A stretch of 64,000 bases of DNA, from contig CAWDGW010000017.1 of NCBI GenBank assembly GCA_963801995.1, positions 669,544 to 733,543 on the forward strand. The letters run 5' to 3'. The notes below the pieces were generated by a model. The model had not been told where the DNA came from. It did no database searches and saw only the letters and a list, made by a program, of their open reading frames with translations. Positions 7,499 through 63,863 of the stretch are shown here, one piece after another; position 1 is the stretch's first letter, and the number at the start of each line of letters is the position of its first letter. The stretch is from an uncultured Holophagae bacterium (GTDB lineage Bacteria; Acidobacteriota; Thermoanaerobaculia; Thermoanaerobaculales; Sulfomarinibacteraceae). A program made the position numbers and the translations under genes.

Positions 7499-7508
7499 GC
7501 GGCGATTC

Positions 7509-7714: not shown

Positions 7715-7730
7715 CAGATCATTCGAACGC

Positions 7731-9406: not shown

Positions 9407-9462
9407 TCGGTCCGCAGATCGACAGACCGTTGAGGTCCCGAGCGTCTCGCTATACTCGGGGG

Positions 9463-13021: not shown

Positions 13022-13055
13022 ATTCGTAATTCGCAATTCGTAATTCGCAATTTTC
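13021..13055. repeat. 7-bp tandem array AATTCGT AATTCGC AATTCGT AATTCGC AATTTTC
   Basis: Starts at the last base of the hypF stop codon. Confidence 0.9.
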
Positions 13056-13174
13056 AGCAGGCTGGGATCCCACACAGCGAATTCGCCCTCCTCCATTGGC
13101 ACAGCGACGACTCTTCGGCGTGAGTTATCATCAAGAGTCGGGGAATCCTGACGAACGAACCGGGAGGCGTACTC

Positions 13175-13402
13175 GTGTGTCTCGCCATACCCATGCGATT
13201 GAAGGAACGTGACGAGATGGACGGCGTCGTCGAACTCGACGGCATCGAACGAAGAGTGTCCCTGATGTTGCTGCCCGACGCCGAGGTGGGACAGCACCTC
13301 CTGATTCACGCCGGCTACGCCATTGGTTCGGTGGACGAGGAAGAGGCCGCTCAAACCCTCGAGCTGCTGCGGGAGTACGCCGACGCCATGGTGGATCTGT
13401 GA
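13175..13402 (+). CDS. hypC: hydrogenase assembly chaperone HypC
   Basis: Has the canonical MCLAIPM N-terminus and is 75 aa. Its stop overlaps the hypD GTG (GTGA). Confidence 0.9.
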   Translation: MCLAIPMRLKERDEMDGVVELDGIERRVSLMLLPDAEVGQHLLIHAGYAIGSVDEEEAAQTLELLREYADAMVDL

Positions 13403-14499: not shown

Positions 14500-14500
14500 G

Positions 14501-16992: not shown

Positions 16993-19900
16993 ATGGGCCT
17001 GACACCCGATGATGTGCTGAGGGCCCGCGCGGCCTTCGACGAAAACGCCGCGGAGATTCTCCGCTTGGCGGTCGAACGCGGCCTCATATCGCCCACCGAG
17101 GCCGACACAGCCATCACCCACGCCCATGTGGAGGTCACCCAGACCGCCGACGGCACTCCGCCCCCGGTGGTCGAGGTGCTCGCCCACAGCGGCGTCTTGG
17201 ACCCGAGCACTCTGGCTGGCCTGGCTCGGGAACTTGGACTGCCCGACGACCACGCATCCACATGGGCGGGAATGGAAAACGCCGCCTTTCCCGACTCTTT
17301 CGACGTACCGCCGGTCAAGGACTGGGACCGCTACGAGATCGTGGACTTCATCGGCCGCGGCGGCATGGGCGACGTCTTCAAGGCACGTGACCCTCGGCTG
17401 GGGCGCTTTGTCGCCCTCAAGTTCCTCCGTCGCGACACTCCGGAGATCGTCCACCGATTCCTCCGTGAGGCCCGGGTTCAGGCAAGGATCGACCACGACA
17501 ACGTGTGCCAGGTCTACGAGGTCGGCGAGGTCGATGGCCACCCCTACATCGCCATGCAGTACATCGCCGGCGGCTCCCTCAAGGAAATCAGCGATCTGCT
17601 GACCATCCCCGAGAAGGCCAGAATCATGGTGGATGTGGCGGACGCCCTCCACGCAGCCCACCAGGCCGGCTTGATTCACCGCGACATCAAGCCCGCCAAC
17701 ATTCTGGTAGAGCGGCTTTCCGAAGGCGGCTGGCGGCCGTACGTTGTGGACTTCGGCATTGCCCGCGAAGCCGAAGGTCGCGACGTCACCATCTCCGGAA
17801 TGGTCCTGGGCACCCCTGCCTTCGCGGCGCCGGAGCAGGTACGGGGCGAGATCGACAGGCTCGACCGTCGAACCGATGTCTACAGCCTCGGAGCCACCAT
17901 GTACTGGTTCCTCACCGACCGGGCGCCCTACGAGGGGGGTTACCCGGAGGTCCTGGCCGGAATCACCGATCGCGAGCCTGTTCCTCCTCACCGGATCAAG
18001 CCCGAAATCGCGGTGGACCTCGAGACCGTCACCCTGAAATGCCTCGAAAAGGAGCAGGACCGGCGCTACCCAACAGCCCGCGCCGTGTCGGAGGATCTGC
18101 GGAGATTTCTCTCGGGGGAACCGATCACCGCCCGACCCACAACTCTGTTCTACAAGCTCGGCAAGAAGGTCCGGAAATACAAGGGATTGACGGCGATCGG
18201 CCTCGCGGTGCTGGTCGCCTTCGCCTTTGTGGTGGGTTATGCCCTTCGTTCGAACCTCATGGCTCGACGCCAGGCGGCGATCGCCCAGCACCTGCTCGTC
18301 CAGGCCAACGAGATCGACAACCTGGCGCGGATCACAGCCATGATGCCGCTCCACGATCGGCGCCAGGAAGAGACCCGAATCAACCGACGAATGCGGGAGA
18401 TCGAGGAGGAGACTGCCCGGCTGGGGCGGCTCGCCTTTGGGCCCGGTCACTACGCCCTTGGCCGGGGTTACCTCGCTCTCCAACGCTACGAGCAAGCTCT
18501 GGAGCACCTCCAGCTCGCCGAAGAGTCGGGCTATGACAACCCGGCTGTTTCCTACGCCACGGGGATGGTGCTCGGCAGGCTCTACGAGGCACAGCTCCAA
18601 CGGGCGAGCCAGCTTGACGACGAAGCGTTGCGCAACGCCTTCCGCCGTTCCATCGAGGCCGAGTACCGCGAGCCGGCTCTCGCATACCTCCGAGCGAGCG
18701 AGACCTCTCAGCCGGAGGCCGCGGCCTATGCCGAGGGCCTGATCGCCTTTTACGAACGCCGGTACGACGAGGCTCTGGCCAAGGCTCGGTCCGCTTTCGA
18801 CGAGGCCGACTGGCTCCATGAGGCCAAAAAGCTCGAAGGCGATATCTATCTCACCCTGGCGACTGAAAACCGCTTCCGCGGCGAGTACGATCAGGCGCTC
18901 GCCGAGCTCGAGATGTCCGGAAAGGCGTACTTCGCCGCGTTTGACATCGCTCGGTCGGACGCGACCATCCTGGACGGCGAGTGCACCCGCTGGATCGAGG
19001 TCCTCGAGACCGAGGCCGCCCGCGGTGACCCCGCCCGCTCGACCTTTGATCAGGCTCTGGCCGCCTGCGATCGATCGCTGCTGGTCAACCCGGATCGGTC
19101 GGCTGCCCACGAGCAGCTGTCATGGCTCCACTGGCGGTGGGCCGACCTGGTCAACGATCGGGGCGACGACCCGTCCGATTTCCTCGACCGGGCCATCGAG
19201 TACGCCCGGCGAGCCATCCAGATCGACCCGGACAGCGCGTCGGCCCACCACAAGCTCGGCGGTGCCATGCTGGTGGCCGGAGTTCACGAAATGGGCCAGG
19301 GTCACGACCCGCGTTCCACCCTGGAGCGTGCAGTGGCGAGCCTGCAGGCAGCGGCCAAGGCCGATCCCAGCATGGTTCCAGCCCACGACGACCTGGGTTA
19401 CGCCTGGGAGAGGATCGCCCGCTATGAGCTGAGCGCCGGCCTCGACCCCCGCTCCGCCCTCGACAACGCAATCGCCAGCTTTGACCGGGCGATCAACATC
19501 AATCCCGAGTACGCCAACCCTTACAACAACAAAGGGATCGCCCTGTGGCGGAGGGGCTACTACGAGCTCAAAACCGGACTCGATCCCGAGCAATCGCTCG
19601 ACCAGGCCCTCGACGCCCTGTCCGCCGCCACAACAATCAATCCCAACTACGCCTACGCCTACGCCAACCGCGGCCTGACCTACCGCACCAAGGCCCTTCA
19701 CCTCCTCGAGCTGGACGAGAACCCCACACCCTGGCTCGACCAGGCGAGGGTCAACTACGACAAGGCGCTGACCATCAAACCCGGAATTTTCTGGGGCTAC
19801 CCGGAGCAGGCCTCGGTGGAGTTGCTGTCCGCCCGGTGGGCCATGCGTCAGGGCCGCTCGCCCGAGCCCTTCTTCGAGGCCGCGGCCAGGGCGGCCCAAC

Positions 19901-20244
19901 GCGGCCTCGACGTCAATCCCCAGAACGCGGCGGCCTACCAGACGGCGGCCAAGGCCCACCGCTGGCGAGCCGAATGGCTCCGTTCCATGCGTCGAGACCC
20001 CAATCCCGACATCACCGCGGGCCTCCGACTGATTCGTACGGCGCTCCAGCTGAACCCCGCCCTCGCCAATGCCCTGATGACTGAAGCCGCACTTCTGATC
20101 CTCCAGGCCGAAGCATCCGACTCCCCTACCGAGCGCCAGAATCTGGTTCGGTCCGCCACCCGGTCGCTGGATCGAGCCATCGAAATCAATCCGGTCCTCG
20201 AACGCGAAGCCCGCCAACTCCGAGAGCGTGCGGAGCTGATCTAG
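16993..20244 (+). CDS. Ser/Thr protein kinase with one TM segment and a long C-terminal TPR region
   Basis: Has the kinase motifs GRGGMGDVFKA, HRDIKPANILV, DFGIA and GTPAFAAPEQ, then TM LTAIGLAVLVAFAFVVGYAL, then about 650 aa of TPR-like repeats (AxxNRGLxY, NPxYAxAY). Confidence 0.9.
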   Translation: MGLTPDDVLRARAAFDENAAEILRLAVERGLISPTEADTAITHAHVEVTQTADGTPPPVVEVLAHSGVLDPSTLAGLARELGLPDDHASTWAGMENAAFPDSFDVPPVKDWDRYEIVDFIGRGGMGDVFKARDPRLGRFVALKFLRRDTPEIVHRFLREARVQARIDHDNVCQVYEVGEVDGHPYIAMQYIAGGSLKEISDLLTIPEKARIMVDVADALHAAHQAGLIHRDIKPANILVERLSEGGWRPYVVDFGIAREAEGRDVTISGMVLGTPAFAAPEQVRGEIDRLDRRTDVYSLGATMYWFLTDRAPYEGGYPEVLAGITDREPVPPHRIKPEIAVDLETVTLKCLEKEQDRRYPTARAVSEDLRRFLSGEPITARPTTLFYKLGKKVRKYKGLTAIGLAVLVAFAFVVGYALRSNLMARRQAAIAQHLLVQANEIDNLARITAMMPLHDRRQEETRINRRMREIEEETARLGRLAFGPGHYALGRGYLALQRYEQALEHLQLAEESGYDNPAVSYATGMVLGRLYEAQLQRASQLDDEALRNAFRRSIEAEYREPALAYLRASETSQPEAAAYAEGLIAFYERRYDEALAKARSAFDEADWLHEAKKLEGDIYLTLATENRFRGEYDQALAELEMSGKAYFAAFDIARSDATILDGECTRWIEVLETEAARGDPARSTFDQALAACDRSLLVNPDRSAAHEQLSWLHWRWADLVNDRGDDPSDFLDRAIEYARRAIQIDPDSASAHHKLGGAMLVAGVHEMGQGHDPRSTLERAVASLQAAAKADPSMVPAHDDLGYAWERIARYELSAGLDPRSALDNAIASFDRAININPEYANPYNNKGIALWRRGYYELKTGLDPEQSLDQALDALSAATTINPNYAYAYANRGLTYRTKALHLLELDENPTPWLDQARVNYDKALTIKPGIFWGYPEQASVELLSARWAMRQGRSPEPFFEAAARAAQRGLDVNPQNAAAYQTAAKAHRWRAEWLRSMRRDPNPDITAGLRLIRTALQLNPALANALMTEAALLILQAEASDSPTERQNLVRSATRSLDRAIEINPVLEREARQLRERAELI

Positions 20245-20345
20245 CCCGCCGCCTCATGGTTCCTGTGTGTTAGTGTGTCGGGCGAACAGACCCGCTCACG
20301 GATCGTGAAATATTGTTGCTGTTGACGCGAATGGAGGACAGGAAG

Positions 20346-20765
20346 ATGAAAAGAACATTGTTGCTGGCGACCGTTGGGCTCGCACTTCTCGTTGCACCGA
20401 GCGCCGGAGCCCAGGAAGAAATCATCGACAACGTCATGGCGGCCTGTGCACCAGAGATTGAGGCCTACTGCAGTCAGGTAACCCTCGGCGAAGGCCGGCT
20501 GCTGGCCTGCTTCTACGCCCACGAGGACAAGCTCTCGGGCCGCTGCCAGTACGCCCTCTACGAGGGGGCCGCCCAACTCGAACAGTTCGCCGTCGCGGTC
20601 ACCCACCTGGCGAACGCGTGTTTCGATGACGTCGAGAAGTACTGCGCCGAGGTCGAGCTTGGCGAGGGACGAGTCGGCACCTGCCTGTTGGAGCACAAGG
20701 CCGAGGTCACGGATGCCTGCCGCCAGGCCATGGACGACGTCCAACTCGAGGTCGGGGGAGAATAG
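20346..20765 (+). CDS. secreted cysteine-rich repeat protein
   Basis: Signal peptide MKRTLLLATVGLALLVAPSAGAQ. Two copies of C-x3-(E/V)-x2-YC-x2-V-x2-GEGR-x3-C-x3-H-x6-C. GGAGGA lies upstream of ATG 20346. Confidence 0.65.
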   Translation: MKRTLLLATVGLALLVAPSAGAQEEIIDNVMAACAPEIEAYCSQVTLGEGRLLACFYAHEDKLSGRCQYALYEGAAQLEQFAVAVTHLANACFDDVEKYCAEVELGEGRVGTCLLEHKAEVTDACRQAMDDVQLEVGGE

Positions 20766-22337: not shown

Positions 22338-22643
22338 TTACAGGGGGCACACGTCGCCCGGGCAGTCGTCCTCGAACGGGCAACTTTCGTACGGGCAGTT
22401 GGCCTTCCTGAGGGTCTTCCTGGCCCGCTCCCAGTCTACCGGCATGGCGGCGCTTTGCTGGCGCTGCCCTACGGCACCCCGAATCTCATCCACGTGGCGC
22501 AGGTAGTGCTCCACTGCGCGTTGGACGATTTCCGAGCGGGTCACGCTGAACCGACTGGCGGCGTCAGCGACCCAACCGGCAGTCTCGTCTGAAAGTTCGG
22601 TATAAAACTCGACCACGGCATCCCCTTTTGTGTTCATTGGCAT
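22338..22643 (-). CDS. ribbon-helix-helix (CopG/Arc-like) protein with Cys-rich C-terminal tail
   Basis: VVEFYTELSDETAGWVADAASRFSVTRSEIVQRAVEHYL follows the beta-strand/helix/helix pattern of RHH proteins. The tail is CPYESCPFEDDCPGDVCPL. The start is uncertain (ATG 22643 or 22637); a perfect TATAAT overlaps 22643, so the mRNA may be leaderless from 22637. Confidence 0.55.
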   Translation of the reverse strand: MPMNTKGDAVVEFYTELSDETAGWVADAASRFSVTRSEIVQRAVEHYLRHVDEIRGAVGQRQQSAAMPVDWERARKTLRKANCPYESCPFEDDCPGDVCPL

Positions 22644-22712
22644 TATAGACCACAACTGCAACTGATTCTCAGAACGAAATTCACAGTCAGGGGATTCCAA
22701 CAGGGGCGCAGT

Positions 22713-23085: not shown

Positions 23086-23124
23086 GTGACCAACTGTTCA
23101 GATCTACAGAACGGGGGGAGAGTC

Positions 23125-24174
23125 ATGAGCCGCCCGATGCCGTTGGCCTGGTGGCCGCCGTTTGCTGTCGTATGTCTGGGTGTCCTTGCGCCGCCAGCGG
23201 GCGCGCAGGTGTGTCCGGAATTGGTGGGCGTCTTGCCGGGAGCTATCGGTGTCGTCACAGCGTCGGGTGACTACGCATACCTTTGTGGTGACTGCTATTC
23301 AAACGGCGGTGACCTTCATATTGCCGACGTCTCACATCCCTCGGTGCCGGAGGTCGTCGGCCAGTTCGAGATGCCGGAGCTTGATATTCACCAGATCGCC
23401 GTGCAGGACGGTTACGCTTACGTCGTAGGCACGGAGTTTTCGAGTGGGAGTCTTCGTGTGATCGACGTAGCCGATCCGCGCGCCCCCGTGGAGGTGGGGC
23501 GCTTCGACGTCCCGGACGCTTCGGCCACAGCGGTCTCGGTGTCTGGCGCCAACGCGTATGTCGGGTACTTTATCCCGGGTGGATTCCCGTTCCGAGTTCT
23601 CGACGTGAGTGATCCACAGCATCCCATGGAGGTGGGAACGGCTCCTACGCATTGGGTTTACGACGTGGCAGTGGCGGACCACTACGCGTACGTCTCATCA
23701 GGCGATATTTTTCTTTCTTACCTTCAGGTGATCGACGTGAGCGATCCATCCGCACCGGTAGTGTTGGTCACGGTTTTATACTTCGGCGGCCAAATCGCGG
23801 TTGACAACAGCTATTTGTACGCAGCTGGGGGCTCCGGCCTTCGGGTCATCGACGTGAGCGATCCGTCCAACCCGGTCGAGGTCGGCTTTGTCGACTTGCC
23901 GGACGGCGCTGGGGACGTCGCGGTATCGTCCGGCTTCGCCTACGTCACCGACTACCCCGCTGGCCTTCGGGTCATCGACGTGAGTCATCCAACCGCACCC
24001 GTGGAGGTCGGTTTTTTCGACACAGACGGCCTCGCCACAGGTGTCTCGGTTTCAGATGGCTACGTATTTGTTGCGGATGGCAATGGCGGCCTGAAGATCT
24101 TCCGAGAGTGTGGTGTGTTCTTGGACGGTTTCGAGTCCGGCGACACAGCGGAGTGGTCGGCGGTGGTGCCGTAG
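23125..24174 (+). CDS. secreted LVIVD-repeat beta-propeller protein carrying the C-terminal GDTxxWSxxVP tag
   Basis: Signal-like MSRPMPLAWWPPFAVVCLGVLAPPAGAQ. Has about 7 repeats of the L(R/Q)V(I/L)DVSDPxxPVEVG type. Ends ...FLDGFESGDTAEWSAVVP*. Confidence 0.8.
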   Translation: MSRPMPLAWWPPFAVVCLGVLAPPAGAQVCPELVGVLPGAIGVVTASGDYAYLCGDCYSNGGDLHIADVSHPSVPEVVGQFEMPELDIHQIAVQDGYAYVVGTEFSSGSLRVIDVADPRAPVEVGRFDVPDASATAVSVSGANAYVGYFIPGGFPFRVLDVSDPQHPMEVGTAPTHWVYDVAVADHYAYVSSGDIFLSYLQVIDVSDPSAPVVLVTVLYFGGQIAVDNSYLYAAGGSGLRVIDVSDPSNPVEVGFVDLPDGAGDVAVSSGFAYVTDYPAGLRVIDVSHPTAPVEVGFFDTDGLATGVSVSDGYVFVADGNGGLKIFRECGVFLDGFESGDTAEWSAVVP

Positions 24175-24285: not shown

Positions 24286-25445
24286 GTGATGTTCCGTGTC
24301 GCCGCGATATTGGTGACGGTGCTCTGTGGGCTCCAGCCCACAGCCGCTTTGACTCAGGTGCAGTGGCAGGTGGTCGTCAGCGATGGTTTGGGTGACAACG
24401 ACAACGGCGACGCCGGAGCGATGTCGGTTTTTCAGCAGCAGCTGTACATCGGGACGGCCAACTTCACCGATGGAGCCGAGCTCTGGCGCAGCCCGGACGG
24501 GACGAGCTGGGACCAGGTCAACAACGACGGCTTCGGTGACGGCGGCAATCACGCCGTGTACGCCATGGCGGTCTTCGACGGCCAGCTCTATGCGGCGACC
24601 TATCAGGGGAATATCGCCACAGGGACCGGGGTCGAGATCTGGCGTGCCGCCGACGGCTCGTCGTGGGAGCAGAGCAACAGTGACGGATTCGGGGACTCCA
24701 CCAACGCGGGCGCACTTGCGATGGCGGTTTTCGGGGGCGACCTCTACGTGGGAACCTTCAAATTCTCCACCGGGGGCTGCGAAATGTGGCGAAGCGACGA
24801 TGGAACCAACTGGACCCAGGTGAACTCCGACGGCTTCGGCGATCTCAGCAACCAGGGTGTGTTCTCCATGGCGGTCTTCGATGGCCAACTCTACGCCGGC
24901 ACCTACAAGGACAGCGGCGGCGGCGGCGAGGTGTGGCGTCCCCGGACGGCACCGCCTGGACCCAGGTCAACTCCGACGGCTTCGGAAATACCGCAGACAG
25001 GGGCATCTACTCCATGGCGGTGTTTGACGGTCAGCTGTACGCAGGAACCGGTCTCGGCGAGATCTGGCGGACCGACAACGGCACCGATTGGCAGCAGGTC
25101 GTCGGCGACGGGTTCGGCAACGACCGAAACTGGGCGATGGATTCCTTGGCTGTATACCGCGGGGAACTTTTAGCCGGCACGTACAACAGCCTGACCGGGA
25201 CCGAGGTCTGGCGAAGCGCCGACGGCTCAATATGGGAACAGGCCAACAGCGACGGATTCGGTCACGCCTGGAATTGTTCATCATCGTCGGTCGCGATCTT
25301 TGCCGAGCAGCTGCACATCGGGACCTACACCTGCGATCCCATGTTCCCTGCGCCGCCGTTCCAGGTATGGCGGACGAACAACCACATTTTCGAGGACGGC
25401 TTCGAGTCCGGCGACACCTCGGCGTGGTCGGCGGTGGTGCCGTAG
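24286..25445 (+). CDS. secreted repeat protein (~48-aa W-x-QVN-x-DGFGD / MAVFDGQLYAGT repeats), tagged; one 1-nt frameshift near 24940
   Basis: Signal-like MMFRVAAILVTVLCGLQPTAALTQ. The repeats continue seamlessly from ORF 24286-25173 into ORF 24786-25445 (..GGGGEVWR / SPDGTAWTQVNSDGFG..). Ends ..FEDGFESGDTSAWSAVVP*. Confidence 0.75.
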
Positions 25446-27101: not shown

Positions 27102-28226
27102 ATGGCACAAGCACACGGGACTCAATGCCGCCATTCGACCAGGTACCTGGTGGTGACCTCATTCCTTGTACTGTCCCTCGTTGGTCCTCGGCTCACCGCC
27201 GAGTCTCCGACCGGCACGGAAACTGCCGCCCGCTGGGCCTACGGGCCCACGACCGCGGTGGCCGTTGTTGACCAGTACGCGTACTTCGGCAGCGGCTGTG
27301 TGCTGCTGGTCGCCCATATCTCCGATTCAGCAGAGCTGGAGATCGTGGCCGAGATCGCCCTGCCCGGAGTCGTGCGGGGCATCGACGTGGTCAATGGCTA
27401 TGCGTACGTGGCCAACGGGAGGTCCGGCCTTCGAATCCTCGACGTCAGGACTCCAACGACTCCGGTGGAGATCGGCGTCGCGTTGGACCCGAGGGATGCC
27501 TATGGCGTCGAAGTGTCCGGCCGCCACGCCCTGGTTGCGGATTTCCGGGGAGGACTCTGGATCATCGACGTCGCCATACCATCCTCCCCTATCGCGGTTG
27601 GATTATCGGCCGAACCTGCAAACCCGGTTGACGTGGTGGTGTGGGGAGATCACGCCTTCGTCGCGGACATGTGGGACGGACTTCGAGTCATCGACTATTC
27701 CGACCCCTCATCGCCTTTCGAAATTGGGCAATTCGACACTCCCGGGATCGCCATCGGTGTGGCGGCCACTGGTCGCCACGTTTACGTGGCCGACTACCAC
27801 GGGGGTCTGCAGGTCGTGGACGTGAGCCAGCCAGAGAAACCGAATCTCGCCGGCCGAGTCGACACACCGGGCGCCGCCAAGGGTCTCTGGATCTGCGAGG
27901 ATCTGGCACTCGTCGCGGACGACGCTGCGGGGCTTCTTGTCATGGATGTGAGGTCGCCCGCCTCGCCCCTCGTCACCGGATTCCACTCAACGCCCGGATT
28001 TGCATCGGGTGTTTCGAGCGATGGACAAACCGCTTTTGTCGCCGACGGTTGGGCCGGCCTTCGGTTGATTGACATCAGGCCGCCGGCCTCCCCTCTCGAG
28101 GTTGCGGCGTACATCAGCCCGACACGTTCAGCCCCGTCGCGACACTGCGGCGGATATGGGTCTGTCGAAGAAACGCCCTCCGGGATCGAGATCTTCAGAG
28201 ACTGTGATCACGACAGCCGGCAGTAA
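27102..28226 (+). CDS. secreted LVIVD-repeat beta-propeller protein (untagged paralog type)
   Basis: GGAAGGAGG RBS. Repeats of the type LRILDVRTPTTPVEIG, LWIIDVAIPSSPIAVG, LRVIDYSDPSSPFEIG and LQVVDVSQPEKPNLAG. Ends ..EIFRDCDHDSRQ* without the tag. Confidence 0.8.
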   Translation: MAQAHGTQCRHSTRYLVVTSFLVLSLVGPRLTAESPTGTETAARWAYGPTTAVAVVDQYAYFGSGCVLLVAHISDSAELEIVAEIALPGVVRGIDVVNGYAYVANGRSGLRILDVRTPTTPVEIGVALDPRDAYGVEVSGRHALVADFRGGLWIIDVAIPSSPIAVGLSAEPANPVDVVVWGDHAFVADMWDGLRVIDYSDPSSPFEIGQFDTPGIAIGVAATGRHVYVADYHGGLQVVDVSQPEKPNLAGRVDTPGAAKGLWICEDLALVADDAAGLLVMDVRSPASPLVTGFHSTPGFASGVSSDGQTAFVADGWAGLRLIDIRPPASPLEVAAYISPTRSAPSRHCGGYGSVEETPSGIEIFRDCDHDSRQ

Positions 28227-28318: not shown

Positions 28319-29696
28319 CTACGGCACCGAGGCCGACCACTGGCCGGTATCCCCGGTCTCGAAGGAGTCCGAGAAAAGGTGGGGACTCGTGACGGTCAGG
28401 CCCTTGATGCAGAAGTTGGCCGTGTCGTCGTCGAACCAGAGATCCTGCCAGACCCCGCCGCCATCGCGGTAGAAGCTCTGATCGGGATCGGCCGATGACT
28501 CCACCAAGGTGCGGCTCTCGGCTCCGAGCAGTACCGGGACGATGGAGGTCCGATCAAAGGGCTGGCCACCCTGGGACAGGCTCAGATACAAGAAAAAGTC
28601 GTCGCCCGTTTGGAGGTTCACCGGAACGTCCAGGTCAACGGTGTAGAATCCCTTCTCGGTCAAGGATCCACTGGTTGTCGAAAGGGGATCGGCCAGGGCG
28701 CCGGCTTCGAAACGATCGTAGACCGTAACCGTGTAATCCACCTGCTCGGCGGCCGTGAAGAAGCTGACTGCCGTCAACAGCTCATCCATGACCGCGGTGA
28801 AGGCGTTGAAGGCTTCGTCCGCATCCAACTTGGTGTCCCGCCATCCGTGGTAGTCGTGGTAATACACGCCTTCGTACCTGAGCGGTTCCACGTCCTGGAA
28901 GGACACCGCCCCCATCTCGGGGTGCTGACAGCTGTACTTGTCGTAGTACGAAATCCAGAAGTAGCCGTCGTGCCCCCACCATTCTCCCCAGCTGTTCTTC
29001 ACCAGCCAGGCGCCCGGTTGCGGGGCTTGAGTGTTGTGATTGATCGTCCCAGCCGACGATGGAAACCGCATGGTTGGGCTCCATGGGCTCGGACGGTGGC
29101 TGGTAGTGGTTGTAATTCCAGTCAATGAACTGACCGGCGTAGGCCATGCAGGTGCCGACCACGCCGTGGTTCATCACCGCCGTCTTGATGGTCTCGATCT
29201 CGCTGAGATCCACCTCGGCCACGTACCAGGCGATGTGGCGCGGATAGTAATAGTGGTAACTGGGATCGCTGCGCAGCGGTGGCGTGTCGTAGCTTTGCCC
29301 GTCCACGTCCCGCACCGCCCCCTCCAGACGGGAGAGGTACGCCGATGTCACCAGGTAGTCGCCGCCGTTGTGAACTTCCAACCCGCCGCCAGTGGGTGGG
29401 TCCGTATCGTCGTTGTTGTGCTGATTGAATCCGTTCCACCAATCCAGGTGGTACTCGGCCAGGTTGGGCTCGCCCTGCTCTCCTGCCGCCGCCCAGGCAC
29501 CGGTCATCAGCAGATTCCCCTCCATGGAGGCCATGGCTCCGTGAGTCCAGCAGGTCCCACCCTGTTGTGACTTGACCGAGGTCACATAGTTGGTCCCGCC
29601 AACGTCGCGAAGATCAAAACTCGCCGGGAGCTGCGCGTGGGCGACGGCGGCAGTCACAAAAACGATGGCGAACACAACGGCGTACTTTTTGGACAT
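28319..29696 (-). CDS. secreted papain-family (C1) cysteine peptidase, tagged; one 1-nt frameshift near 29045
   Basis: Signal [21 protein letters not shown]. Has the catalytic blocks [11 protein letters not shown] (Gln/Cys), [11 protein letters not shown] (His) and [19 protein letters not shown] (Asn/Trp); the last block is in the second ORF (28319-29125). Ends ..[18 protein letters not shown]. Confidence 0.8.
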
Positions 29697-29881
29697 CCGA
29701 AGCCTCCAAGACTGGTACCGATGGCACCAAATCCGGCACCGGTTTACATTCTAGCAAGTTGTTGGTGATACGTTTTCTCAAAATTTGAAAAACACCCGAG
29801 GGGAGTGAATCTCCCCACGATGACCGCTGAAAAGAACGATCGGGAGAGTGGCGAGTGCTGAGCCCCCCGTCTCGGTGCGGT

Positions 29882-31471
29882 ATGCTCGCCCCGATGAGAG
29901 CGGTATTACTCACTGTTGTCGAACGTTCGGTGGTGGTCGTCCTGGCCCTGTTGGTCGCAGGTGGCATCGCCCAACATGTCATGGCTGATTCTGACGGCGA
30001 TTCCAGCCCGGATCTCGCGATCCTCGATCGATCGCCAGGCGATGGCAAGGTATCGCCTTGGGTTGCAGATGCCGTGGCCCTCGGAGGCACCACCGAGCTG
30101 CTCGTGGTTCTGTCCGACCAGGCCGACCTCGAGTCACTCCAGACCGGAGAGGCTTTGTCGGCGCGCCGACATCTGGTGCGAAACGCCTTGTGGGACACGG
30201 CCCAGGCCAGCCAGCGCCAGTTGAGGCTTTGGTTGACCGACAGGGGCATATCCCATCGGCCTTTCTACATCGTCAACGCGATTCTGGTGTCCGGGGCCGA
30301 CAGCGCCCTGGTGGGCGAGCTGGCGACCCGTCCCGACGTGGCGAGGATCGCGGCGAATCCACGGGTGCGGCAGATCCTCCCGGTGCCCAAAGCCCCTCCG
30401 GTGACCGAGTTCGGCGAGGCGATCGAATGGAATGTCTTGCAGATCAGGGCAGACGAAATGTGGGCCAAGGGCATCACCGGCCAGGACATCGTCGTCGGCA
30501 ATCAGGACACCGGCTTCGACTGGGAGCATCCCGCCCTGGTGCAGCAGTATCGAGGATGGGATGGGTCGGCGGCGAACCACGATTACAACTGGCACGACTC
30601 CATCCACACTGGCGGCGGTGCCTGCGGGCCCGACTCGCCGGCGCCTTGTGACGACCACGGCCACGGCACCCTCACCACGGGGGTTGTGGTGGGCGACGAC
30701 GGCGGCGCCAACCAGATTGGAGTCGCGCCCGGCGCGCGCTGGATCGGCTGCCGCAACATGGACCAGGGCGTCGGAACTCCCGCCACCTACCTCGAGTGCC
30801 TGGAGTTCTTCCTCGCTCCCTACCCGGTGGGCGGCACCCCGGCCCAGGGCGACCCCGACCGAGCGCCCCATGTCACCAACAACTCCTGGACGTGCCCGCC
30901 TTCCGAGGGCTGCGACTGGGACACCCTGCAGGCCGCGTTCGAAGCGCAGCGAGCCGCCGGCATCATGACGGTGGTGGCGGCCGGCAATTCGGGCTCGTCC
31001 TGCTCGTCGGTGGATATTCCGCCGGCGATCTACGACGCGGTGTACTCCGTCGGCTCCATTAACCTCTTCGGCGAGATTTCCAGCTTTAGCGCCCGCGGCC
31101 CCGTGATGGTCGACGGCAGCGGCCGGCTCAAGCCTGACATCTCGGCGCCCGGTGAGGACGTCCGTTCGAGCGCCGCCGGAGGCGGTTACGAATCGGCGTC
31201 CGGAACCTCACTGGCCTCCCCCCACGTGGCCGGAGCAGTGGCCCTGCTGTGGTCGGCGTCGCCGTCGTTGATCGGGAGGATCGACGCCACCGAGGCCATC
31301 TTCAACATCACCGCCGAGGGCTGGACGAGCGATCAGTGCGGCGATCCGGCCGACGCCGTGCCCAACAACGTGTACGGATGGGGGGTGCTCGACGCACTCG
31401 CCGCCTACGAGGTCTTCGACGACGGCTTCGAGTCCGGCAACGCCTATTTCTGGTCGGCCATCGTCCCGTAG
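29882..31471 (+). CDS. secreted subtilisin-family (S8) serine peptidase with N-terminal propeptide, tagged
   Basis: Catalytic triad blocks VGNQDTGFD (Asp), HGHGTLTTG (His) and SGTSLASPHVAG (Ser), with NNSW for the oxyanion Asn. Ends ..FDDGFESGNAYFWSAIVP*. The start is uncertain (GTG 29855, ATG 29882 or ATG 29894). Confidence 0.85.
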   Translation: MLAPMRAVLLTVVERSVVVVLALLVAGGIAQHVMADSDGDSSPDLAILDRSPGDGKVSPWVADAVALGGTTELLVVLSDQADLESLQTGEALSARRHLVRNALWDTAQASQRQLRLWLTDRGISHRPFYIVNAILVSGADSALVGELATRPDVARIAANPRVRQILPVPKAPPVTEFGEAIEWNVLQIRADEMWAKGITGQDIVVGNQDTGFDWEHPALVQQYRGWDGSAANHDYNWHDSIHTGGGACGPDSPAPCDDHGHGTLTTGVVVGDDGGANQIGVAPGARWIGCRNMDQGVGTPATYLECLEFFLAPYPVGGTPAQGDPDRAPHVTNNSWTCPPSEGCDWDTLQAAFEAQRAAGIMTVVAAGNSGSSCSSVDIPPAIYDAVYSVGSINLFGEISSFSARGPVMVDGSGRLKPDISAPGEDVRSSAAGGGYESASGTSLASPHVAGAVALLWSASPSLIGRIDATEAIFNITAEGWTSDQCGDPADAVPNNVYGWGVLDALAAYEVFDDGFESGNAYFWSAIVP

Positions 31472-31495
31472 ACTGCATATCTCACCGCCGGTCCA

Positions 31496-31524
31496 TTGAC
31501 ATCGCTCTCTCCGGGGAACATATT
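31496..31524 (+). promoter_or_regulatory. putative sigma70-type promoter
   Basis: TTGACA-N17-CATATT, about 30 nt before ATG 31555 (RBS CTGGAGG). Confidence 0.4.
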
Positions 31525-31554
31525 GGCAACTAGAACCCCCGACTGGAGGCCAAT

Positions 31555-32493
31555 ATGCGTGCAGTCGTCCTCGTCCTCGTGATGGTGTGGCTCTCGCCGC
31601 CCGGACTGTGGGCACAGAACATCTTCGCAGACGGTTTCGAAACCGGCGATGTGTGGAGGTGGACCGACAGCGTTGGGTTCAGCTGTAGTGACGAATGCAA
31701 CCTCGTTTCACAAGTAGGATGTGTGCCCACCGAAAAGTGCACCTTTTTCGGGGCCTCAAATCCGGATCGGGGCTGTGCGCGGTGTGTGGATGACGGCGAC
31801 GTAGGATGGGGAGGTGCCTGTGCCTTCGATCCGACCACCGGGATCGACGACTGCGTGGCAGGCCTCTATTGTCATGAAGGGACCTGCAAGGAGTTCTGTT
31901 CGTGGCCGCCGGAAACCTGTCCTGATCCTGAAGGGTGTTTCGGCATAGCGCTCACCTTTGACGGCCTATTCGTCGGGCTGTGCGTCCCACAGTGCGATCT
32001 CTTCGCCCAGGACTGCAGCCCCGACAAGGGGTGCTACATCATGCTCGGCAGGGATTCCTACCCGAGTTTTTGCTACGTGCCCGAGCCCGAGCCCGATCCG
32101 CCGGACGGCTGCGGCATCGGCCTCGACCGCCCGGGGATCCAAGGAGAGTGCTGCTCTTACATCAATACCTGCCAACCCGAATACGGGTGCAACCAACTCA
32201 ACGGGCCGGATTTCGATCACATGGTGTGCGCCAGAAACTGCGATCCCACCGGCACCCTTGGCTCGGACGACTGCGTGCAGGTTCTCGGATCAACCTTCTG
32301 GTGCATGTCGATCAACGCGTACTACGCAAACCTGGATGAACTGCCCGACGCCTATGGTTTCTGCATCGACTGGACGATCTGGGGTCCGCCCGAGTGCTAC
32401 AACGGTGTCCAGGACGCACACGAGGACGGCATCGACTGCTGCGTGGAGCCCGGAGGGGATCCGGACTGCCCCTGCGTATACGAGTGCCTTTGA
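31555..32493 (+). CDS. secreted cysteine-rich protein (~34 Cys in 312 aa) with the tag-like motif at the mature N-terminus
   Basis: Signal MRAVVLVLVMVWLSPPGLWAQ followed directly by NIFADGFETGDVWRWTDSVG. The rest is Cys-rich, and the C-terminal ECYNGVQDAHEDGIDCCVEPGGDPDCPC resembles Cys-knot-type repeats. Confidence 0.7.
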   Translation: MRAVVLVLVMVWLSPPGLWAQNIFADGFETGDVWRWTDSVGFSCSDECNLVSQVGCVPTEKCTFFGASNPDRGCARCVDDGDVGWGGACAFDPTTGIDDCVAGLYCHEGTCKEFCSWPPETCPDPEGCFGIALTFDGLFVGLCVPQCDLFAQDCSPDKGCYIMLGRDSYPSFCYVPEPEPDPPDGCGIGLDRPGIQGECCSYINTCQPEYGCNQLNGPDFDHMVCARNCDPTGTLGSDDCVQVLGSTFWCMSINAYYANLDELPDAYGFCIDWTIWGPPECYNGVQDAHEDGIDCCVEPGGDPDCPCVYECL

Positions 32494-52141: not shown

Positions 52142-52175
52142 GGGTCGAGGTTCGGGGCTCGGGGTTCGGGAGCGG
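52141..52175. repeat. 7-bp array GGGGTCG AGGTTCG GGGCTCG GGGTTCG GGAGCGG
   Basis: Begins at the last base of the giant-1 stop codon. Confidence 0.9.
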
Positions 52176-52295
52176 AATGTACGGCAGGGGTTTACCCCCC
52201 GCCAATCGGAAACCGCCGAGATCCCCCGGGGATAGACCACCGGGCCGCGGGTTTCTGATCGAAGCAGGTGATTCTTCTCGCCGTCGCCGATGGCG

Positions 52296-55500: not shown

Positions 55501-58139
55501 CTCTACTACCAGGCCGTTGGTCTCTCCGGGGTTACTGTCAATGATCCCTTCTTCGACTTCGCTTCGATGGCAAGGGATCCGGGCGACTGGCCCTTCTGCT
55601 CGAACCCAGGGCTGAAAGCTCTGTCCGAGCTCCCACCCGGCATTCCCATCATCGGTGGCCACTGGGGGTGGAAGGTCATCGGCAGCGGCTGCGCCCCGCT
55701 CACAACCTGCAATCCGGTGCTCACGCCGAATTGGGATATTGAGATCCCGTCTGGGGCAGCTCGCCAAGTTCGTCGGCAACGCCGGCTTCACCTTCAAGTT
55801 CCAGATCGATCAATGCCCGTGTTCCTACATGCTCCACGAATCCGCCATCAATGCCGGCATCGGGATCAACATCGACGTGCCCGTGGCCGAGGTTCCCCTC
55901 ATTCTCGGCAAGATCCCGGTGGGATACGCCATAGCTACTCTCGGCGTGGCTGGCAACCTCGGAGGCAGTCTGATCTGGCACTCGAATTTCCCAATCCTGG
56001 GTTCCAGCGACGGCGTCCTCAACCTCGATGTCGGCTACGTTGTGACCGGAAAGTTGACCTTCTTCTTCGGTGGCCTGGAGGGCAAGGTCACCGGAGACGC
56101 AACGGTCTATTGGACACAACAGCAACCCGACTACGGCATCAGATTCCTTGGGGAATGCGTCCGACTCATCGGGACAGCATCATCCGGATTCGGGGTCCTC
56201 GAGGAGAATTACGGGATCCAGTGGGGATCCAACTGCCCGCCGCTGCCCACCATGGGAACCGAGGGAATCCGTTTTGACTTCGCAACATCCAGTGATTCAC
56301 GAGACGTCCAAGTCGAGTCACAGATCGAGTACGTGAAAGCTCAATTGGTGGGAACCGGCACGATCCTATGAGGGAAACCCGGTTCTCGGCGACATCTCGA
56401 CTGATCTCTATATCGACGGCCCACCCTCCGTGGCTGTGAGCCCAACCGGAGGTTCTCTCCTCGTCTGGGCAAAGGCCGAGCAACACCAGAACCTCGGAGC
56501 CAAGATCTGGGCATCGAGCTACACGGGAACCGGCTGGTCGACACCAGAGGCCATCACTCCGTCAACGAATTTCGTCAAGGACCCATTCGTCGCCTATGAC
56601 TCGAACGGCAACGCCATGGCCGTGTGGTCCGAAGCCTCCAATGCCGGCCTCGATTTCAATACGAGCTCGGTGGAGGACATCGCGGCGGCGGTCGAGATCG
56701 CCGACATCTGGTACGCACGGCACACCGGAAGCGCGTGGTCGTCACCGGCCCGCCTGGCTGATCTGCCGGGCCGAGACGAGCAGCCGCACCTTGCCCGTGG
56801 TCCGTCGGGGCAGATCGCCGCAACCTGGCTCAACCAGGACGACCTCGGCGATTGGGCGCTCTACGCCGCGATCTGGTACGGATCCTCATGGTCCACACCC
56901 ACCATCATCGCGACACCACCCATCGCCTATCGCCCACTGGTGTACTACCAGGGCGGATTTCCTACGGTTCTCTGGAGCCAGGCCGATCCCGACGTCCCCG
57001 AATCGTTCAACGATTGGAAGCTCTACTGGTCCTCGTGGAACGGAGTGTCCTGGTCCGAACCTGAACCGGTGGGACTTTCCGGATCAACAAAAACCACTGA
57101 AGCTCCTACAGGTCCTGACTCGATGCTGGATCTGCAGTTTCCCGATCCTCCCTCCTACTGCTGTCTGGACAGCTGCGACGATCCTCTGCCCCCGGATCCC
57201 GCCTCCGGCGGCGCCACCCAGATTCCTCAGGGCAACGCATTCTCGCCGGTTGTGGCCTCTGTCGATCCCAATGAAAAGACCGGACCCGCCGGCTCAGGCG
57301 ACGAACACTTCATCGATGCCGGTGACCGGCTGGATTACGTGGTCTATTTCGAAAATCTGCCGGCCGCCGCCGCCCCCGCCCAGGAGGTCTTTGTCACCGA
57401 CTGTCTTGACCACGATCTCGACTGGACCTCGGTCACTCTGGACGAGGTGGCGTTCGGTGATTTCATCGTCGGCAATCCTGGTGCGGAGCCGCTCTTCGAC
57501 ACCCGCATCACCATTCCGGACCACCGGCCTGGCGAAACCAAGGAATGGTGGGTGGACGTCATCACCGACTTCGACCTCGGCACCGGCTGCCTGGACGTCA
57601 TATTCCGCACCCTCGACCCGGTCACCGGGGAGCTGCCGGAGGATGCCTTCGCCGGCTTCCTGCCGCCGGAGGACGGCACCGGCCGGGGCCAGGGACACAT
57701 CAGCCTGTCCGTGGACTCAAAGACCGACCTGGTTGACGGCACCGTCATCACCAACTTCGGCACCATCGTCTTCGACATCAACCAGTCCATCGTCACCAAC
57801 GAGGTCTTCAACACCATCGGCAGCCCGCTGGAGCCGGTGCTCACCGTGAGCCTGGCCGGACCCGGCAGTGGGGTGGTGACCAGCGATCCCCCCGGCATCG
57901 ACTGCGGCGTTGACTGCACCGAGGCCTATCCCATCGCGACGATTGTGGACCTCGAGGCCACCGCGGAGCCCGACTCAGAGTTTGTCGGCTGGTCCGGCGA
58001 TCCGGACTGCTCGGACGGCACGGTGACCATGGACAGCGACAGGAGCTGCACCGCCACCTTCGACCTGCTGCCGTCGCTGCCCTTCTCGGACGGGTTCGAA
58101 TCCGGCGACACCTCGGCCTGGTCGCACACCGTGCCGTAG
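52522..58139 (+). CDS. giant secreted multidomain protein 2 (~1871 aa), tagged; two 1-nt insertions (about 55750 and 56364)
   Basis: Starts MERSVRVCCAVSLLLLLYVPSALAQEPGTVKWVF. It has the same architecture as giant 1. The sequence continues across ORFs 52324.., 55655.. and 56430.., judged by alignment to giants 1 and 3. It carries an extra 81-aa Cys-containing domain (57828-58070) before the tag. Ends ..FSDGFESGDTSAWSHTVP*. Confidence 0.8.
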
Positions 58140-61400: not shown

Positions 61401-63863
61401 GCATCGGTGCCCGTGGTGCTCTGGCTGCAGCGGGACTACGCGATCAACGACGACACGGACCTCTACTACCAACCCGTCGGTCTCTCCGGAATCGCCGTCG
61501 ATGATCCGTTCTTTGACCTCGACTCGATGGCGCGGGATCCTGGCGACTGGCCATTCTGCTCGAACCCCGGCCTCAAAGCGCTGTCCGAGCTTCCGCCCGG
61601 AATTCCGATCATCGGAGGTCACTGGGGCTGGAAGGTCATCGGCAGCGGCTGTGCACCCCTGACCACCTGTAATCCGGTTCTCACGCCCAATTGGGAGATC
61701 GAGATCCCCCTGGGGCAGCTCGCCAAGTTCGTCGGCAACGCCGGCTTCACCTTCAAGTTCCAACTGGAACAATGCCCGTGCTCCTACATGCTCCACGAAT
61801 CCGCCATCAACGCCGGCATCGGGATCAACATCGACGTGCCCGTGGCCGAGGTTCCCCTGATTCTCGGCAAGATTCCGGTGGGGTACGCCATAGCTACTCT
61901 CGGTGTGAGCCGGCAACCTCGGAGGTGGTCTCATCTGGCACTCGAACTTCCCAATCCTGGGCTCCAGCGACGGCGTCCTCAACCTCGATGTCGGCTACGT
62001 TGTGACCGGGAAATTGACCTTCTTCTTCGGTGGTCTGGAGGGCAAGGTCACCGGAGACGCAACGGTCTATTGGACCCAGCAGCAGCCCGACTACGGCATC
62101 GCTTCCTTGGGGAGTGCGTTCGACTTGATCGGGACCGCGTCAATCGGGATTCGGCGTTCTCGAGGAAACTACCTGATCCAATGGGGATCCAATTGCCCAC
62201 CGCTGCCCAGCATGGGAATTTGAGGGAATGTATATTCCCGTTCGGGAATCCGGTACATCGCGAGACGTCCAAATCGAGTGGCAGATCGAGTACGTCAAGG
62301 CTCAGTTGATGGGACCGGCACGACCTACGAAGGCAACCCCGTGCTCGGCGACATCTCGGCAGACGTCTATATCGATGGACCGCCCTCTGTTGCCGCCAGC
62401 GCCTCAGGAGATGCTCTCCTCGTCTGGGCCAAGGCCGAGCCACACCAGAACCTCGGCGCCAAGGTCTGGGCGTCCACCTACACCGGTACTGGCTGGTCTG
62501 CACCGGAAGCCGTCACTCCGGTAACCGATTTCATCAAGGACCCATTCGTCGCCTATCGACTCAAACGGCAACGCCATGGCCGTGTGGTCCGAAGCCTCCA
62601 ATGCAGGCCTCGATTTCAATACCAGCCCGGTGGAAGACATCGTCGCGGCGACCGAGCTCGCCGACATCTGGTACGCACGGAACACGGGGGCGCGTGGTCC
62701 TCACCGGTCCGGCTGGCTGATCCTCCCCGGCCGAGACGAGCAGCCATCCCTCGCCCGCGGACCCTCTGCACAGATCGCCGCCGCCTGGCTCAACCAGGAC
62801 GACCTCGGCGACTGGGCGCTCTACGCCGCGATCTGGTACGGATCCTCATGGTCCACGCCCGCCATCATCGCGACGCCACCCATCGCCTATCGCCCGCTGG
62901 TGTACTACCAGGGCGGATTTCCTACGGTTCTCTGGAGCCAGGCCGATCCCGACGTCCCCGAATCGTTCAACGACTGGAGGCTCTACTGGTCGACGTGGAA
63001 CGGTGTGTCCTGGTCGACTCCCGAGCCGGTGGGGCCTGGCCGCGCCTTCGGAGGGCACCACGAGACCCGACAGAAGTCGTGTCTCGATGCTGGACCTGCA
63101 ATTCCCGGATCCTCCGTCCTACTGTTGTCTGGACAGCTGCGACGATCCTCTGCCCCCGGATCCTGCCTCCGGCGGCGCCACCCAGATTCCTCAGGGCAAC
63201 GCATTCTCGCCGGTTGTGGCCTCTGTCGATCCCAATGAAAAGACCGGACCTGCCGGCTCAGGCGACGAACACTTCATCGATGCCGGTGACCGGCTGGATT
63301 ACGTGGTCTATTTCGAAAATCTGCCGGCCGCCGCCGCCCCGGCCCAGGAGGTCTTCGTCACCGACTGTCTTGACCACGATCTCGACTGGACCTCGGTCAC
63401 TCTGGACGAGGTGGCGTTCGGTGATTTCATCGTCGGCAATCCTGGTGCGGAGCCGCTCTTCGACACCCGCATCACCATTCCGGACCACCGGCCTGGCGAA
63501 ACCAAGGAATGGTGGGTGGATGTCATCACCGAATTCGACCTCGGCACCGGATGTCTGGACGTCACATTCCGCACCCTCGATCCCGTAACCGGCGAGCTGC
63601 CGGAGGATGCCTTTGCAGGCTTCCTGCCGCCTGAAGACGGCACCGGTCGTGGACAGGGTCACATCAGCCTGTCCGTGGACTCAAAGACCGACCTGGTGGA
63701 CGGCACCGTCATCACCAACTTCGGCACCATCGTCTTCGACATCAACCAGTCCATCATGACCAACGAGGTCTTCAACACCATCGGCAGCCCGGGACCGTCG
63801 CTGCCCTTCTCGGACGGATTCGAGTCCGGCGACACCTCGGCGTGGTCGCGCACCGTGCCGTAG
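58480..63863 (+). pseudogene. giant secreted multidomain protein 3 (~1794 aa if repaired), tagged; N-terminal 2.66 kb intact, then about 12 single-nt indels between 61147 and 63080
   Basis: Starts MAHCVPTRVALTALILISSTVSSSQEPGTVKWVF. It is colinear with giant 2 (offset about 5958 nt) with stretches of 100% nucleotide identity. The conserved protein sequence hops among ORFs 58480.., 61134.., 62002.., 62228.., 62278.., 62576.. and 63003... Ends ..FSDGFESGDTSAWSRTVP*. It may be a real pseudogene or an assembly artefact. Confidence 0.7.

Follow-up and report, generated by a model that had tools for sequence, protein, structure and literature searches.

A 64,000-nucleotide stretch of the genome of an uncultured Holophagae bacterium of the Sulfomarinibacteraceae (contig CAWDGW010000017.1, positions 669,544 to 733,543 of the forward strand; hereafter, the window) encodes proteins that share a 19-residue tag, [ILV]F-x-DGFE[ST]G[DN]-x3-W[ST]-x2-V[P/G]. 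The tag closes seven open reading frames (ORFs) at their extreme C-terminus and, in a Cys-rich protein, follows the predicted signal peptide. The N-terminal segment is very probably a true, selected copy of the tag. We tentatively propose, with slightly less than even confidence, that the tag would serve as a position-tolerant recognition or docking handle, which would attach secreted proteins to a common partner of the cell envelope. The original prediction, made from the letters of the window, had taken the presence of the motif at either free end as a sign of a terminal docking or strand-donor peptide, or of a recognition handle, rather than of a membrane-anchor-type sorting signal; overall, its interpretation is partly supported.

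The N-terminal copy of the tag in the Cys-rich protein

ORF 31555-32493 of the forward strand encodes a Cys-rich protein of 312 residues, in which a predicted signal peptide and two further residues precede the motif. The N-terminus of the protein reads MRAVVLVLVMVWLSPPGLWAQNIFADGFETGDVWRWTDSVGFSCSDEC... and the positions originally given for the motif, 31618-31680, correspond, as claimed, to codons N22-F42 of this ORF. The gene and its upstream region comprise the following features:

31496..31524, + strand: promoter-like TTGACA-17-CATATT between the stop codon of the S8 peptidase gene and the Cys-rich gene (consensus match only)
31545..31549, + strand: Shine-Dalgarno sequence GGAGG, 5 nt before the ATG (sequence reading)
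31555..31614, + strand: predicted Sec signal peptide M1-A20, MRAVVLVLVMVWLSPPGLWA (n-, h- and c-regions, by rule of thumb)
31621..31677, + strand: N-terminal copy of the tag, 19 residues I23-G41, IFADGFETGDVWRWTDSVG (profile from C-terminal tags only)
31678..32493, + strand: Cys-rich domain F42-L312 plus stop codon, a fold without known match (conserved Cys, no Pfam match)

The position of the GGAGG sequence supports the start codon at 31555, and the GC content at third codon positions (GC3) of the ORF is 0.74. The region contains two promoter-like sites, where 0.3 would be expected. By inspection, the signal peptide divides into MR, AVVLVLVMVWL and SPPGLWA/QN (the slash marks the putative cleavage site), with small residues at -1 and -3, and this pattern is kept in relatives, where the context of the site reads AWA/QS, LSA/QS, LSA/QD, LSA/QE, LWA/DD or AAA/QE. 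The -3/-1 rule and the xxA/Q pattern of the relatives make signal peptidase cleavage after Ala20 (LWA/QN) more likely than cleavage after Gln21, in which case the motif would start two residues from the mature N-terminus. The original prediction had ended the signal peptide in ..PPGLWAQ, immediately before the motif; the order of the two elements holds, but the cut probably falls one residue earlier. Its description of the motif as matching the C-terminal consensus up to V, with G replacing the final P, is correct. The V-G of this copy runs on into the protein and forms no terminal V-P-COOH; in the Cys-rich family V is followed by G or another residue, and the sequence continues as VG[WFAV].

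A hidden Markov model (HMM) was built from the seven C-terminal 20-mers of the window only, the N-terminal copy being excluded to avoid circularity. Against the 1105 six-frame segments of the window, the N-terminal copy was the best non-self match of this seven-tail model (15.3 bits, E 6e-4), and it exceeded all 50 residue-shuffled replicates, which reached a top score of 12.4 and a mean best score of 6.6; the similarity thus stands out from a shuffled background. With the same profile, the equivalent segment of nine relatives scored 13-33 bits. The closest of them, P0002-P0005 (54-63% identity), all display a signal peptide, two residues and the motif, which is often more canonical than in the window (in P0005 it reads AQEIFSDGFESGDVLAWSAS), and 13 aligned motif copies all agree in the residues F, D, F, E, G and W. 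A protein identical to the Cys-rich protein of the window (P0001) is present in public data; an exact-sequence look-up returned no record for it, and relatives P0002, P0005, P0012 and P0017 were taken instead. The profile score and the nine relatives bear out the view that the N-terminal segment is a genuine, conserved copy of the C-terminal tag. N- and C-terminal versions occur together in three genomes, those of the window and of loci L001 and L116, and in the window the carrier of the N-terminal copy, with its signal-peptide-like N-terminus, lies in the same stretch as the seven C-terminal copies. A recent duplication from the 3' end of the upstream S8 gene was considered and rejected, as inspection revealed no DNA identity beyond that demanded by the shared peptide.

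Apparent independence of the motif from the Cys-rich domain

The Cys-rich domain contains 19 Cys among 43 invariant columns. It gave no Pfam match, and hence none to a complete ConA-like β-sandwich of ~130-210 residues; a Foldseek search of its model against the PDB returned EGF- or furin-like noise alone, all of it at E 0.3 or above. Domain and motif are found in several arrangements. The domain occurs without the motif in lipoprotein homologs of ~500 residues (P0006, P0007, P0010, P0011, P0014 and P0016) and also in P0019-P0021; P0009 and P0012 have an internal motif, with an InhA-like MAM domain before it and the Cys-rich domain after it; and in P0013 and P0017 the motif follows the signal peptide and precedes the second half of the Cys-rich domain only. 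In an AlphaFold2 model of the Cys-rich protein (21 homologs), residues ~45-285 reached a predicted local distance difference test (pLDDT) score of 70-93, while residues 1-41 were unpacked and remained below 50, a low value that rests on an alignment of 21 sequences only. The motif therefore appears to be autonomous with respect to the Cys-rich domain, since the domain exists without it, and since it may stand internally, before half a domain, and unpacked in the model.

The gene lies in a conserved arrangement. An S8 peptidase with a C-terminal tag is followed on the same strand by the Cys-rich protein with the N-terminal tag, both in the window (29855-32493) and in L001 (8476-10942); the gap between the two genes is 83-115 nt, their order is kept in the two genomes, and a divergently oriented C1 peptidase lies upstream of the pair in both. 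From this gene order, a functional pairing of S8 peptidase and Cys-rich protein, for example as enzyme and inhibitor or partner, is possible.

C-terminal tags and their distribution

A six-frame scan of the window identified seven ORFs that end in FE[ST]G[DN]xxxWSxxVP-stop, and in each of them FE lies exactly 14 residues ahead of the stop; the complete 19-mer pattern of the seven tails is [ILV]FxDGFE[ST]G[DN]xxxWSxxVP-stop. The only copy of the motif in the window that is not C-terminal is that of ORF 31555-32493. The C-terminal tags are:

24115..24171, + strand: tag of an LVIVD-repeat propeller, VFLDGFESGDTAEWSAVVP-stop (ORF 23086-24174)
25386..25442, + strand: tag of the 219-residue ORF 24786-25445, IFEDGFESGDTSAWSAVVP-stop
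28322..28378, - strand: tag of a C1 peptidase with lectin-like domain (frameshifted ORFs 28319-29125 and 28782-29696)
31412..31468, + strand: tag of the S8 peptidase, VFDDGFESGNAYFWSAIVP-stop (ORF 29855-31471), kept in the syntenic locus L001
52082..52138, + strand: tag of a PQQ-propeller/DUF7619 protein of 1840 residues, PFYDGFESGDTSAWSRTVP-stop (46619-52141)
58080..58136, + strand: tag of the second PQQ/DUF7619 paralog, PFSDGFESGDTSAWSHTVP-stop (52324-58139, frameshifted)
63804..63860, + strand: tag of the third PQQ/DUF7619 paralog, PFSDGFESGDTSAWSRTVP-stop (58480-63863, frameshifted)

The last three form a tandem array of giant paralogs (window 46619-63863), each comprising a PQQ β-propeller, a CarboxypepD_reg-like domain, DUF7619 and the tag. 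A number of tagged genes are broken up into ORFs that overlap in different frames (28319-29696 on the - strand; 24286-25445, 52324-58139 and 58480-63863 on the + strand); ORF 24786-25445 probably continues 24286-25173 after a frameshift. The C1 peptidase is unbroken in its L001 ortholog (613 residues) and in public homologs (~456 residues). The splits are probably indel errors of the long-read assembly of this metagenome-assembled genome (MAG), pseudogenes being the alternative. Two LVIVD paralogs delimit the tag: the tagged one (23086-24174) reads ...IFREC and continues with the tag, while the untagged one (27102-28226) stops six residues after ...IFRDC, which marks the tag as a clean 20-residue add-on.

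The DNA pattern encoding GFE[ST]G[DN]xxxW[ST]xxVP plus a stop codon was scanned over 596 Gb, where ~0.07 matches are expected by chance; at least 113 stretches matched. At least 139 C-terminal copies were located in at least 113 genome loci, and seven further copies in those loci carry a few extra residues after the motif or are cut by the end of the locus; N-terminal or internal copies were otherwise absent from these loci, which had been selected around C-terminal tags. Among the 113 loci listed, 91 are titled Acidobacteriota, Thermoanaerobaculia or "Holophagae" MAGs, including Sulfomarinibacteraceae and Multivoradales, and a few are titled Deltaproteobacteria, Polyangiaceae or Gemmatimonadota. 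From 108 tails the consensus reads [ILV]-F-[AS]-D-G-F-E-S-G-D-T-S-A-W-S-x-[TV]-V-P; the linkers in front of it are rich in G, P, A and S. Positions outside the search pattern are conserved as well, namely F at -18 (102 of 108 tails) and D at -16 (104 of 108). A profile of 13 copies, run against 1.84 billion cluster representatives, retrieved 5538 proteins at E<=1e-3. In Thermoanaerobaculia the carriers include S8, C1 and trypsin-like peptidases, LVIVD, PQQ and FG-GAP propellers, and LamG or CBM proteins.

The tag appears to be undescribed. Pfam and NCBIfam scans of whole proteins and of 24-26-residue tail peptides returned no model for it, a search of PDB sequences with the motif profile gave chance hits only, to the WD40 protein Swd1, and a full-text literature search for motif strings and for C-terminal sorting in Thermoanaerobaculia found no relevant paper in the library searched. 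The NCBI name of one tagged protein is "lectin like domain-containing protein"; PGAP names do not recognise the tag.

The site occupied by the tag is interchangeable with other C-terminal elements. In 120 homologs of the C1 peptidase with lectin-like domain, all sharing the last strand ...ANFCIKGL, this strand is followed by:

nothing, or fewer than ~6 residues: ~45 homologs
this tag: ~24 homologs
the C-terminal domain (CTD) of the type IX secretion system (T9SS): ~20 homologs
PEP-CTERM: ~8 homologs
dockerin-like repeats: ~6 homologs
archaeal Ig-like domains: the remainder of the 120

A "choice-of-anchor B"-like LVIVD protein also carries the tag. The interchangeable slot, together with the LVIVD pair, indicates that the tag is a localisation or attachment module. 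Tagged proteins are of types that are commonly secreted or exposed at the surface. The tag itself has no transmembrane helix, hydrophobic helix or basic cluster and hence is not of the PEP-CTERM or LPXTG type, in agreement with the earlier view that it is not a membrane-anchor-type signal.

Position of the motif and relation to jelly-roll domains

The best profile matches are proteins with 2-6 internal copies, each mostly the first strand of a ConA-like domain of ~170 residues (...PVFADGFESGDLSTWTSTNGLAVQ...). In these multi-copy proteins the motif aligns to positions 1-40 of Polysacc_lyase (PF14099) and to positions 3-46 of CBM_4_9 (PF02018); tail peptides alone give a weak match to positions 1-19 of CBM_4_9 (E 0.15) and to positions 2-22 of NTTRR-F1. 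The sequences point to the opening β-strand or hairpin of ConA-like jelly-roll domains as the most likely origin of the tag. If the motif is a jelly-roll first strand, its native place is the N-terminal edge of a domain, and the free-standing C-terminal form is derived. Two CBM_4_9-like proteins of Thermoanaerobaculia of ~200 residues (L048 5010-5630 and L077 5785-6396) start with their own first strand, NLVVNPDFDSDVSGWS, and end ...HFDNVEFVE-LVFFDGFESGDTTAWSAVVP, with the tag directly after the last strand; they thus hold two β1-like strands, one at each end.

Among single-copy top matches, 44 are exactly C-terminal, ~5 are N-terminal after a signal peptide, and some others are internal with VP retained. 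The motif stands right after the signal peptide in P0013, P0017, P0159, P0165 and P0092, of which P0159 and P0165 come from unrelated families, and 16 small proteins hold 2-3 tandem free-standing copies, 2-8 residues apart. Low model confidence was obtained at the C-terminal end also: in the AlphaFold2 model of P0178, a Thermoanaerobaculales C1 peptidase with lectin-like domain and tag (60 homologs; mean pLDDT 85, body ~95), the last 26 residues have a pLDDT of 54-63 and show no regular packing. In these models both terminal copies look like flexible appendages, as would fit an element that folds only on a partner. The copies behind signal peptides, inside proteins and in tandem, together with the unpacked models at both ends, substantiate the claim that the motif is independent of position; its restriction to "either free end" was too narrow, given the copies between domains in P0009 and P0012 and the arrays of 2-3. 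The existence of other N-terminal instances is confirmed by the ~5 single-copy matches, but N-terminal placement is rare in this lineage, with none found against 139 C-terminal copies in 857 kb of loci sampled around C-terminal tags.

Phage copies of the motif

A pattern scan of IMG/VR found 61 viral contigs with the motif. There, 28 copies lie at residue 3-5 of proteins of 220-470 residues, as jelly-roll β1 without a signal peptide; 18 are internal; and 17 are C-terminal on small proteins with signal-peptide-like or lipoprotein-like N-termini. Of 10 small-protein loci inspected, 5 have a peptidoglycan hydrolase gene as the immediate upstream neighbour in the same orientation (Amidase_3 in three, Amidase_2 in one and M23, a weak match, in one). 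The gene of P0032 overlaps a GTA_holin_3TM gene by 4 nt; that of P0033, with three tandem tags, lies between YqaJ exonuclease and cI-like repressor genes, in contigs that also carry GTA_holin_3TM. Small phage proteins that end in 1-3 motif copies, many of them with signal-peptide-like or lipoprotein-like N-termini, are encoded in lysis cassettes, right behind an endolysin gene (Amidase_3, Amidase_2 or M23) or a GTA_holin_3TM gene, at:

L119 6001-6579
L122 2114-2587
L140 3284-3721
L143 318-731
L151 8585-8893
L160 10897-11322
L180 166-486

These proteins have no PHROG annotation and no Pfam match. Judged from sequence and gene context, they may be lysis accessory or spanin-like proteins of a new class, making use of the tag. 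As lysis-cassette proteins act on the envelope from the periplasmic side, their presence would favour a handle directed at the envelope, as opposed to a signal that sends proteins out into the medium.

Proposed role of the tag and alternative explanations

In the reading that we tentatively favour, the tag would be a 19-residue autonomous module added to unrelated secreted proteins of Thermoanaerobaculia, almost always at the extreme C-terminus. Detached from its jelly roll, it would lack a fold in which to bury its three acidic residues and its three invariant aromatic ones (F, F, W), and it would fold on binding a common partner, probably by β-strand addition, in the periplasm, at the outer membrane or on the cell surface. 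Partner binding would retain or route the tagged proteins in the envelope; in the Cys-rich family the handle would be placed directly after the signal peptide rather than at the C-terminus. The N-terminal, internal and tandem copies argue against a transmembrane-anchor or transpeptidase signal and favour a small folded or fold-on-binding epitope.

Several observations weigh against a position-tolerant handle. In 857 kb, 139 copies are C-terminal and none N-terminal, in loci that were chosen around C-terminal tags, and 106 of the 108 C-terminal tails end in VP-COOH, a figure to be read with the V-P that the search pattern itself demanded. This bias and the terminal VP-COOH suggest some end-specific constraint, of which a handle wholly indifferent to position would have no need, and the near-invariance of VP-COOH, set beside the VG of the N-terminal copies, leaves room for end-specific recognition or processing of the C-terminal form. 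The N-terminal copy of the window is the most diverged (15 bits, compared with 44-49 for C-terminal tags). The low AlphaFold confidence of both terminal copies may stem from the shallow alignments of 21 and 60 sequences. Furthermore, neither the 710 ORFs clustered from 115 loci (L001-L115) and the window nor the window itself yielded a partner, an acceptor domain or a processing enzyme.

The C-terminal bias and the invariant VP keep alive the main rival explanation, unlikely in our view, that the C-terminal tag is a sorting signal that requires a free ...TVP-COOH and is recognised, and probably removed, by dedicated machinery for secretion or attachment. The N-terminal copy would then be a by-product of domain shuffling and would not use the same machinery; it could have arisen when read-through fused a tagged gene to a Cys-rich gene behind it and the first domain was subsequently lost. 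The MAM-tag-Cys-rich architecture of P0009 and P0012, as would result from such a fusion, does exist, the tag swaps with PEP-CTERM and T9SS CTDs, both of them processed signals, and C-terminal copies prevail among the single-copy top matches as they do in the loci. Against this, the invariant F/D/F/E/G/W are kept in relatives of 44-63% identity and also before a truncated domain, a conservation that indicates selection on the N-terminal copy. Other proteins have free-standing internal and tandem copies, in several of which further sequence stands behind the VP. Near 120+ tagged genes, nothing resembling a sortase, exosortase or rhombosortase gene was detected, and the tag has no transmembrane helix.

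Two further readings are both improbable. In the first, the tag would be a trans-acting donor strand, a detached jelly-roll β1 that enters an acceptor β-sandwich or outer-membrane protein lacking or shedding its first strand. The strand-donor peptide of the original prediction gains indirect support from the resemblance of the motif to a jelly-roll opening strand (CBM_4_9 positions 1-19; Polysacc_lyase positions 1-40); no acceptor was found in the clustered loci. In the second, for which our estimate is equally low, the motif belongs to the structure of the next domain as its opening strand, and the likeness of the copies reflects shared descent of a strand, not shared function. Most of the top multi-copy matches do start a ConA-like domain of ~170 residues, phage copies lie at residue 3-5, and in the Cys-rich family the motif always directly precedes the Cys-rich domain and goes on as VG[WFAV]. 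However, in place of a jelly roll, the motif of that family is followed by a disulfide-rich domain without Pfam or PDB match. The motif may stand before the complete domain or before its second half alone, and the AlphaFold model leaves it unpacked. Within the lineage it closely matches the free-standing tag, including S/T-G-D and W-S-x-x-V. The existence of the Cys-rich domain without the motif weakens this explanation.

Chance resemblance or a mis-called frame, to which the 15.3 bits of the window copy and its departure from the consensus at five positions might point, is rejected on the scores of the seven-tail profile in the window (above all 50 shuffles) and in the relatives, and is further opposed by the strong Shine-Dalgarno sequence, the GC3, and the presence of P0001 and of more canonical relatives.

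Gene neighbourhood

Few untagged neighbours recurred: Ser/Thr kinase-TPR proteins of ~900-1080 residues in 12 loci (e.g. L063 1115-3811), and also in the window (16993-20244) and L001 (1-508), and extracytoplasmic function (ECF) sigma factors (PF07638) in 4 loci, such as L013 6093-6683 beside tagged genes; apart from these, only generic MacB-type ABC transporters and one T2SSE-like ATPase were found. As candidate machinery all of these were rejected, being judged regulators or generic neighbours. The location of kinase-TPR proteins and ECF sigma factors next to tagged clusters suggests dedicated regulation of the tagged secretome. A transglutaminase-core protein (PF01841; 25588-26286), encoded directly after two tagged genes, was set aside as processing enzyme because it is not a recurrent neighbour across the loci and a conserved Gln or Lys is missing from the tag.

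Two small, conserved proteins lie by the tagged cluster in both the window and L001: a secreted Cys_rich_FGFR-repeat protein (window 20313-20765; L001 610-1044) and a protein of 110-120 residues ending ...CP[YF]xxCPFxxDCPGDVCPL (window 22338-22700; L001 2862-3194). Positions 1-15526 of the window hold a [NiFe] hydrogenase operon unrelated to the tag, with the small subunit (1584-2687), an NrfD-like membrane subunit (3559-4779), and the large subunit (4779-6479); the maturation genes HypB-like (9855-10682) and HypE-like (14033-15526) lie in this region too.

Comparison with known systems

Predictions of the surface proteome of uncultured bacteria depend mainly on modular terminal tags, and LPXTG, PEP-CTERM, T9SS CTDs and dockerins each led to dedicated envelope machinery. 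Thermoanaerobaculia are common in soil and sediment and have hardly any cultured members; a large number of their secreted peptidases and propellers bear the present tag. The link to phage lysis cassettes offers an independent route to the partner of the tag, and a natural 19-residue docking peptide working at either terminus, if this is what the tag is, would be a useful part for protein engineering.

ConA-like and galactose-binding-like jelly rolls (CBM_4_9, Polysacc_lyase, Laminin_G_3 PF13385, NTTRR-F1) share with the tag the pattern hydrophobic-F-x-[DN]-G-x0-1-F-E-x-G-x3-4-W. Unlike theirs, the strand of the tag stands alone, with no jelly roll behind the C-terminal copies or after those of the Cys-rich family, and it displays a lineage-specific T-S-A before W and x-[TV]-V-P at the end. 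Spanin genes normally adjoin endolysin or holin genes; the small phage tag proteins resemble spanins in being encoded beside such genes and in their signal-peptide-like or lipoprotein-like N-termini, and differ in having no PHROG or Pfam match. The β-signal of outer-membrane proteins, a C-terminal aromatic residue in an amphipathic terminal strand, was rejected because the C-terminal copies end in Pro.

PEP-CTERM with exosortase and the T9SS CTD are, like the tag, lineage-restricted C-terminal elements that dozens of diverse secreted proteins carry in each genome, and homologous passengers can bear one of them in place of another. PEP-CTERM, however, comprises a PEP motif, a transmembrane helix and an Arg cluster, none of which is present in the 19-mer, and the T9SS CTD (PF18962/TIGR04183) is a β-sandwich of 70-100 residues, whose models do not match the tag. 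Both are strictly C-terminal and cleaved, whereas the tag is also N-terminal, internal and tandem.

In chaperone-usher and type V pili a terminal β-strand fills the groove left by a missing strand in another β-sandwich; in the type V case, proteolysis opens the groove by cutting off the N-terminal strand. Donor-strand exchange is the conceptual analogue of a strand-donating tag; there are no pilins among the tagged proteins, which are enzymes and propellers, and no acceptor missing its first strand was found.

Dockerins are likewise small appendages of secreted enzymes, without transmembrane helix and usually C-terminal, are tolerated at positions other than the C-terminus, and occupy the same slot in the C1-peptidase homologs. 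They comprise ~60-70 residues and two Ca-binding DxNxDG loops; the tag has 19 residues and no sequence similarity to them, and a dockerin (PF00404) or EF-hand Ca loop was excluded by the absence of the DxNxDGxxxxxD pattern and of any Pfam match. Under our proposal, the two would have in common the non-covalent docking to a common partner. Should the donor-strand reading prove true, the tag would constitute a minimal, 19-residue cohesin-dockerin-like or donor-strand-exchange-like system for the surface display of peptidases and propellers, usable from either end of a protein and co-opted by phages in their lysis cassettes to grip the envelope.

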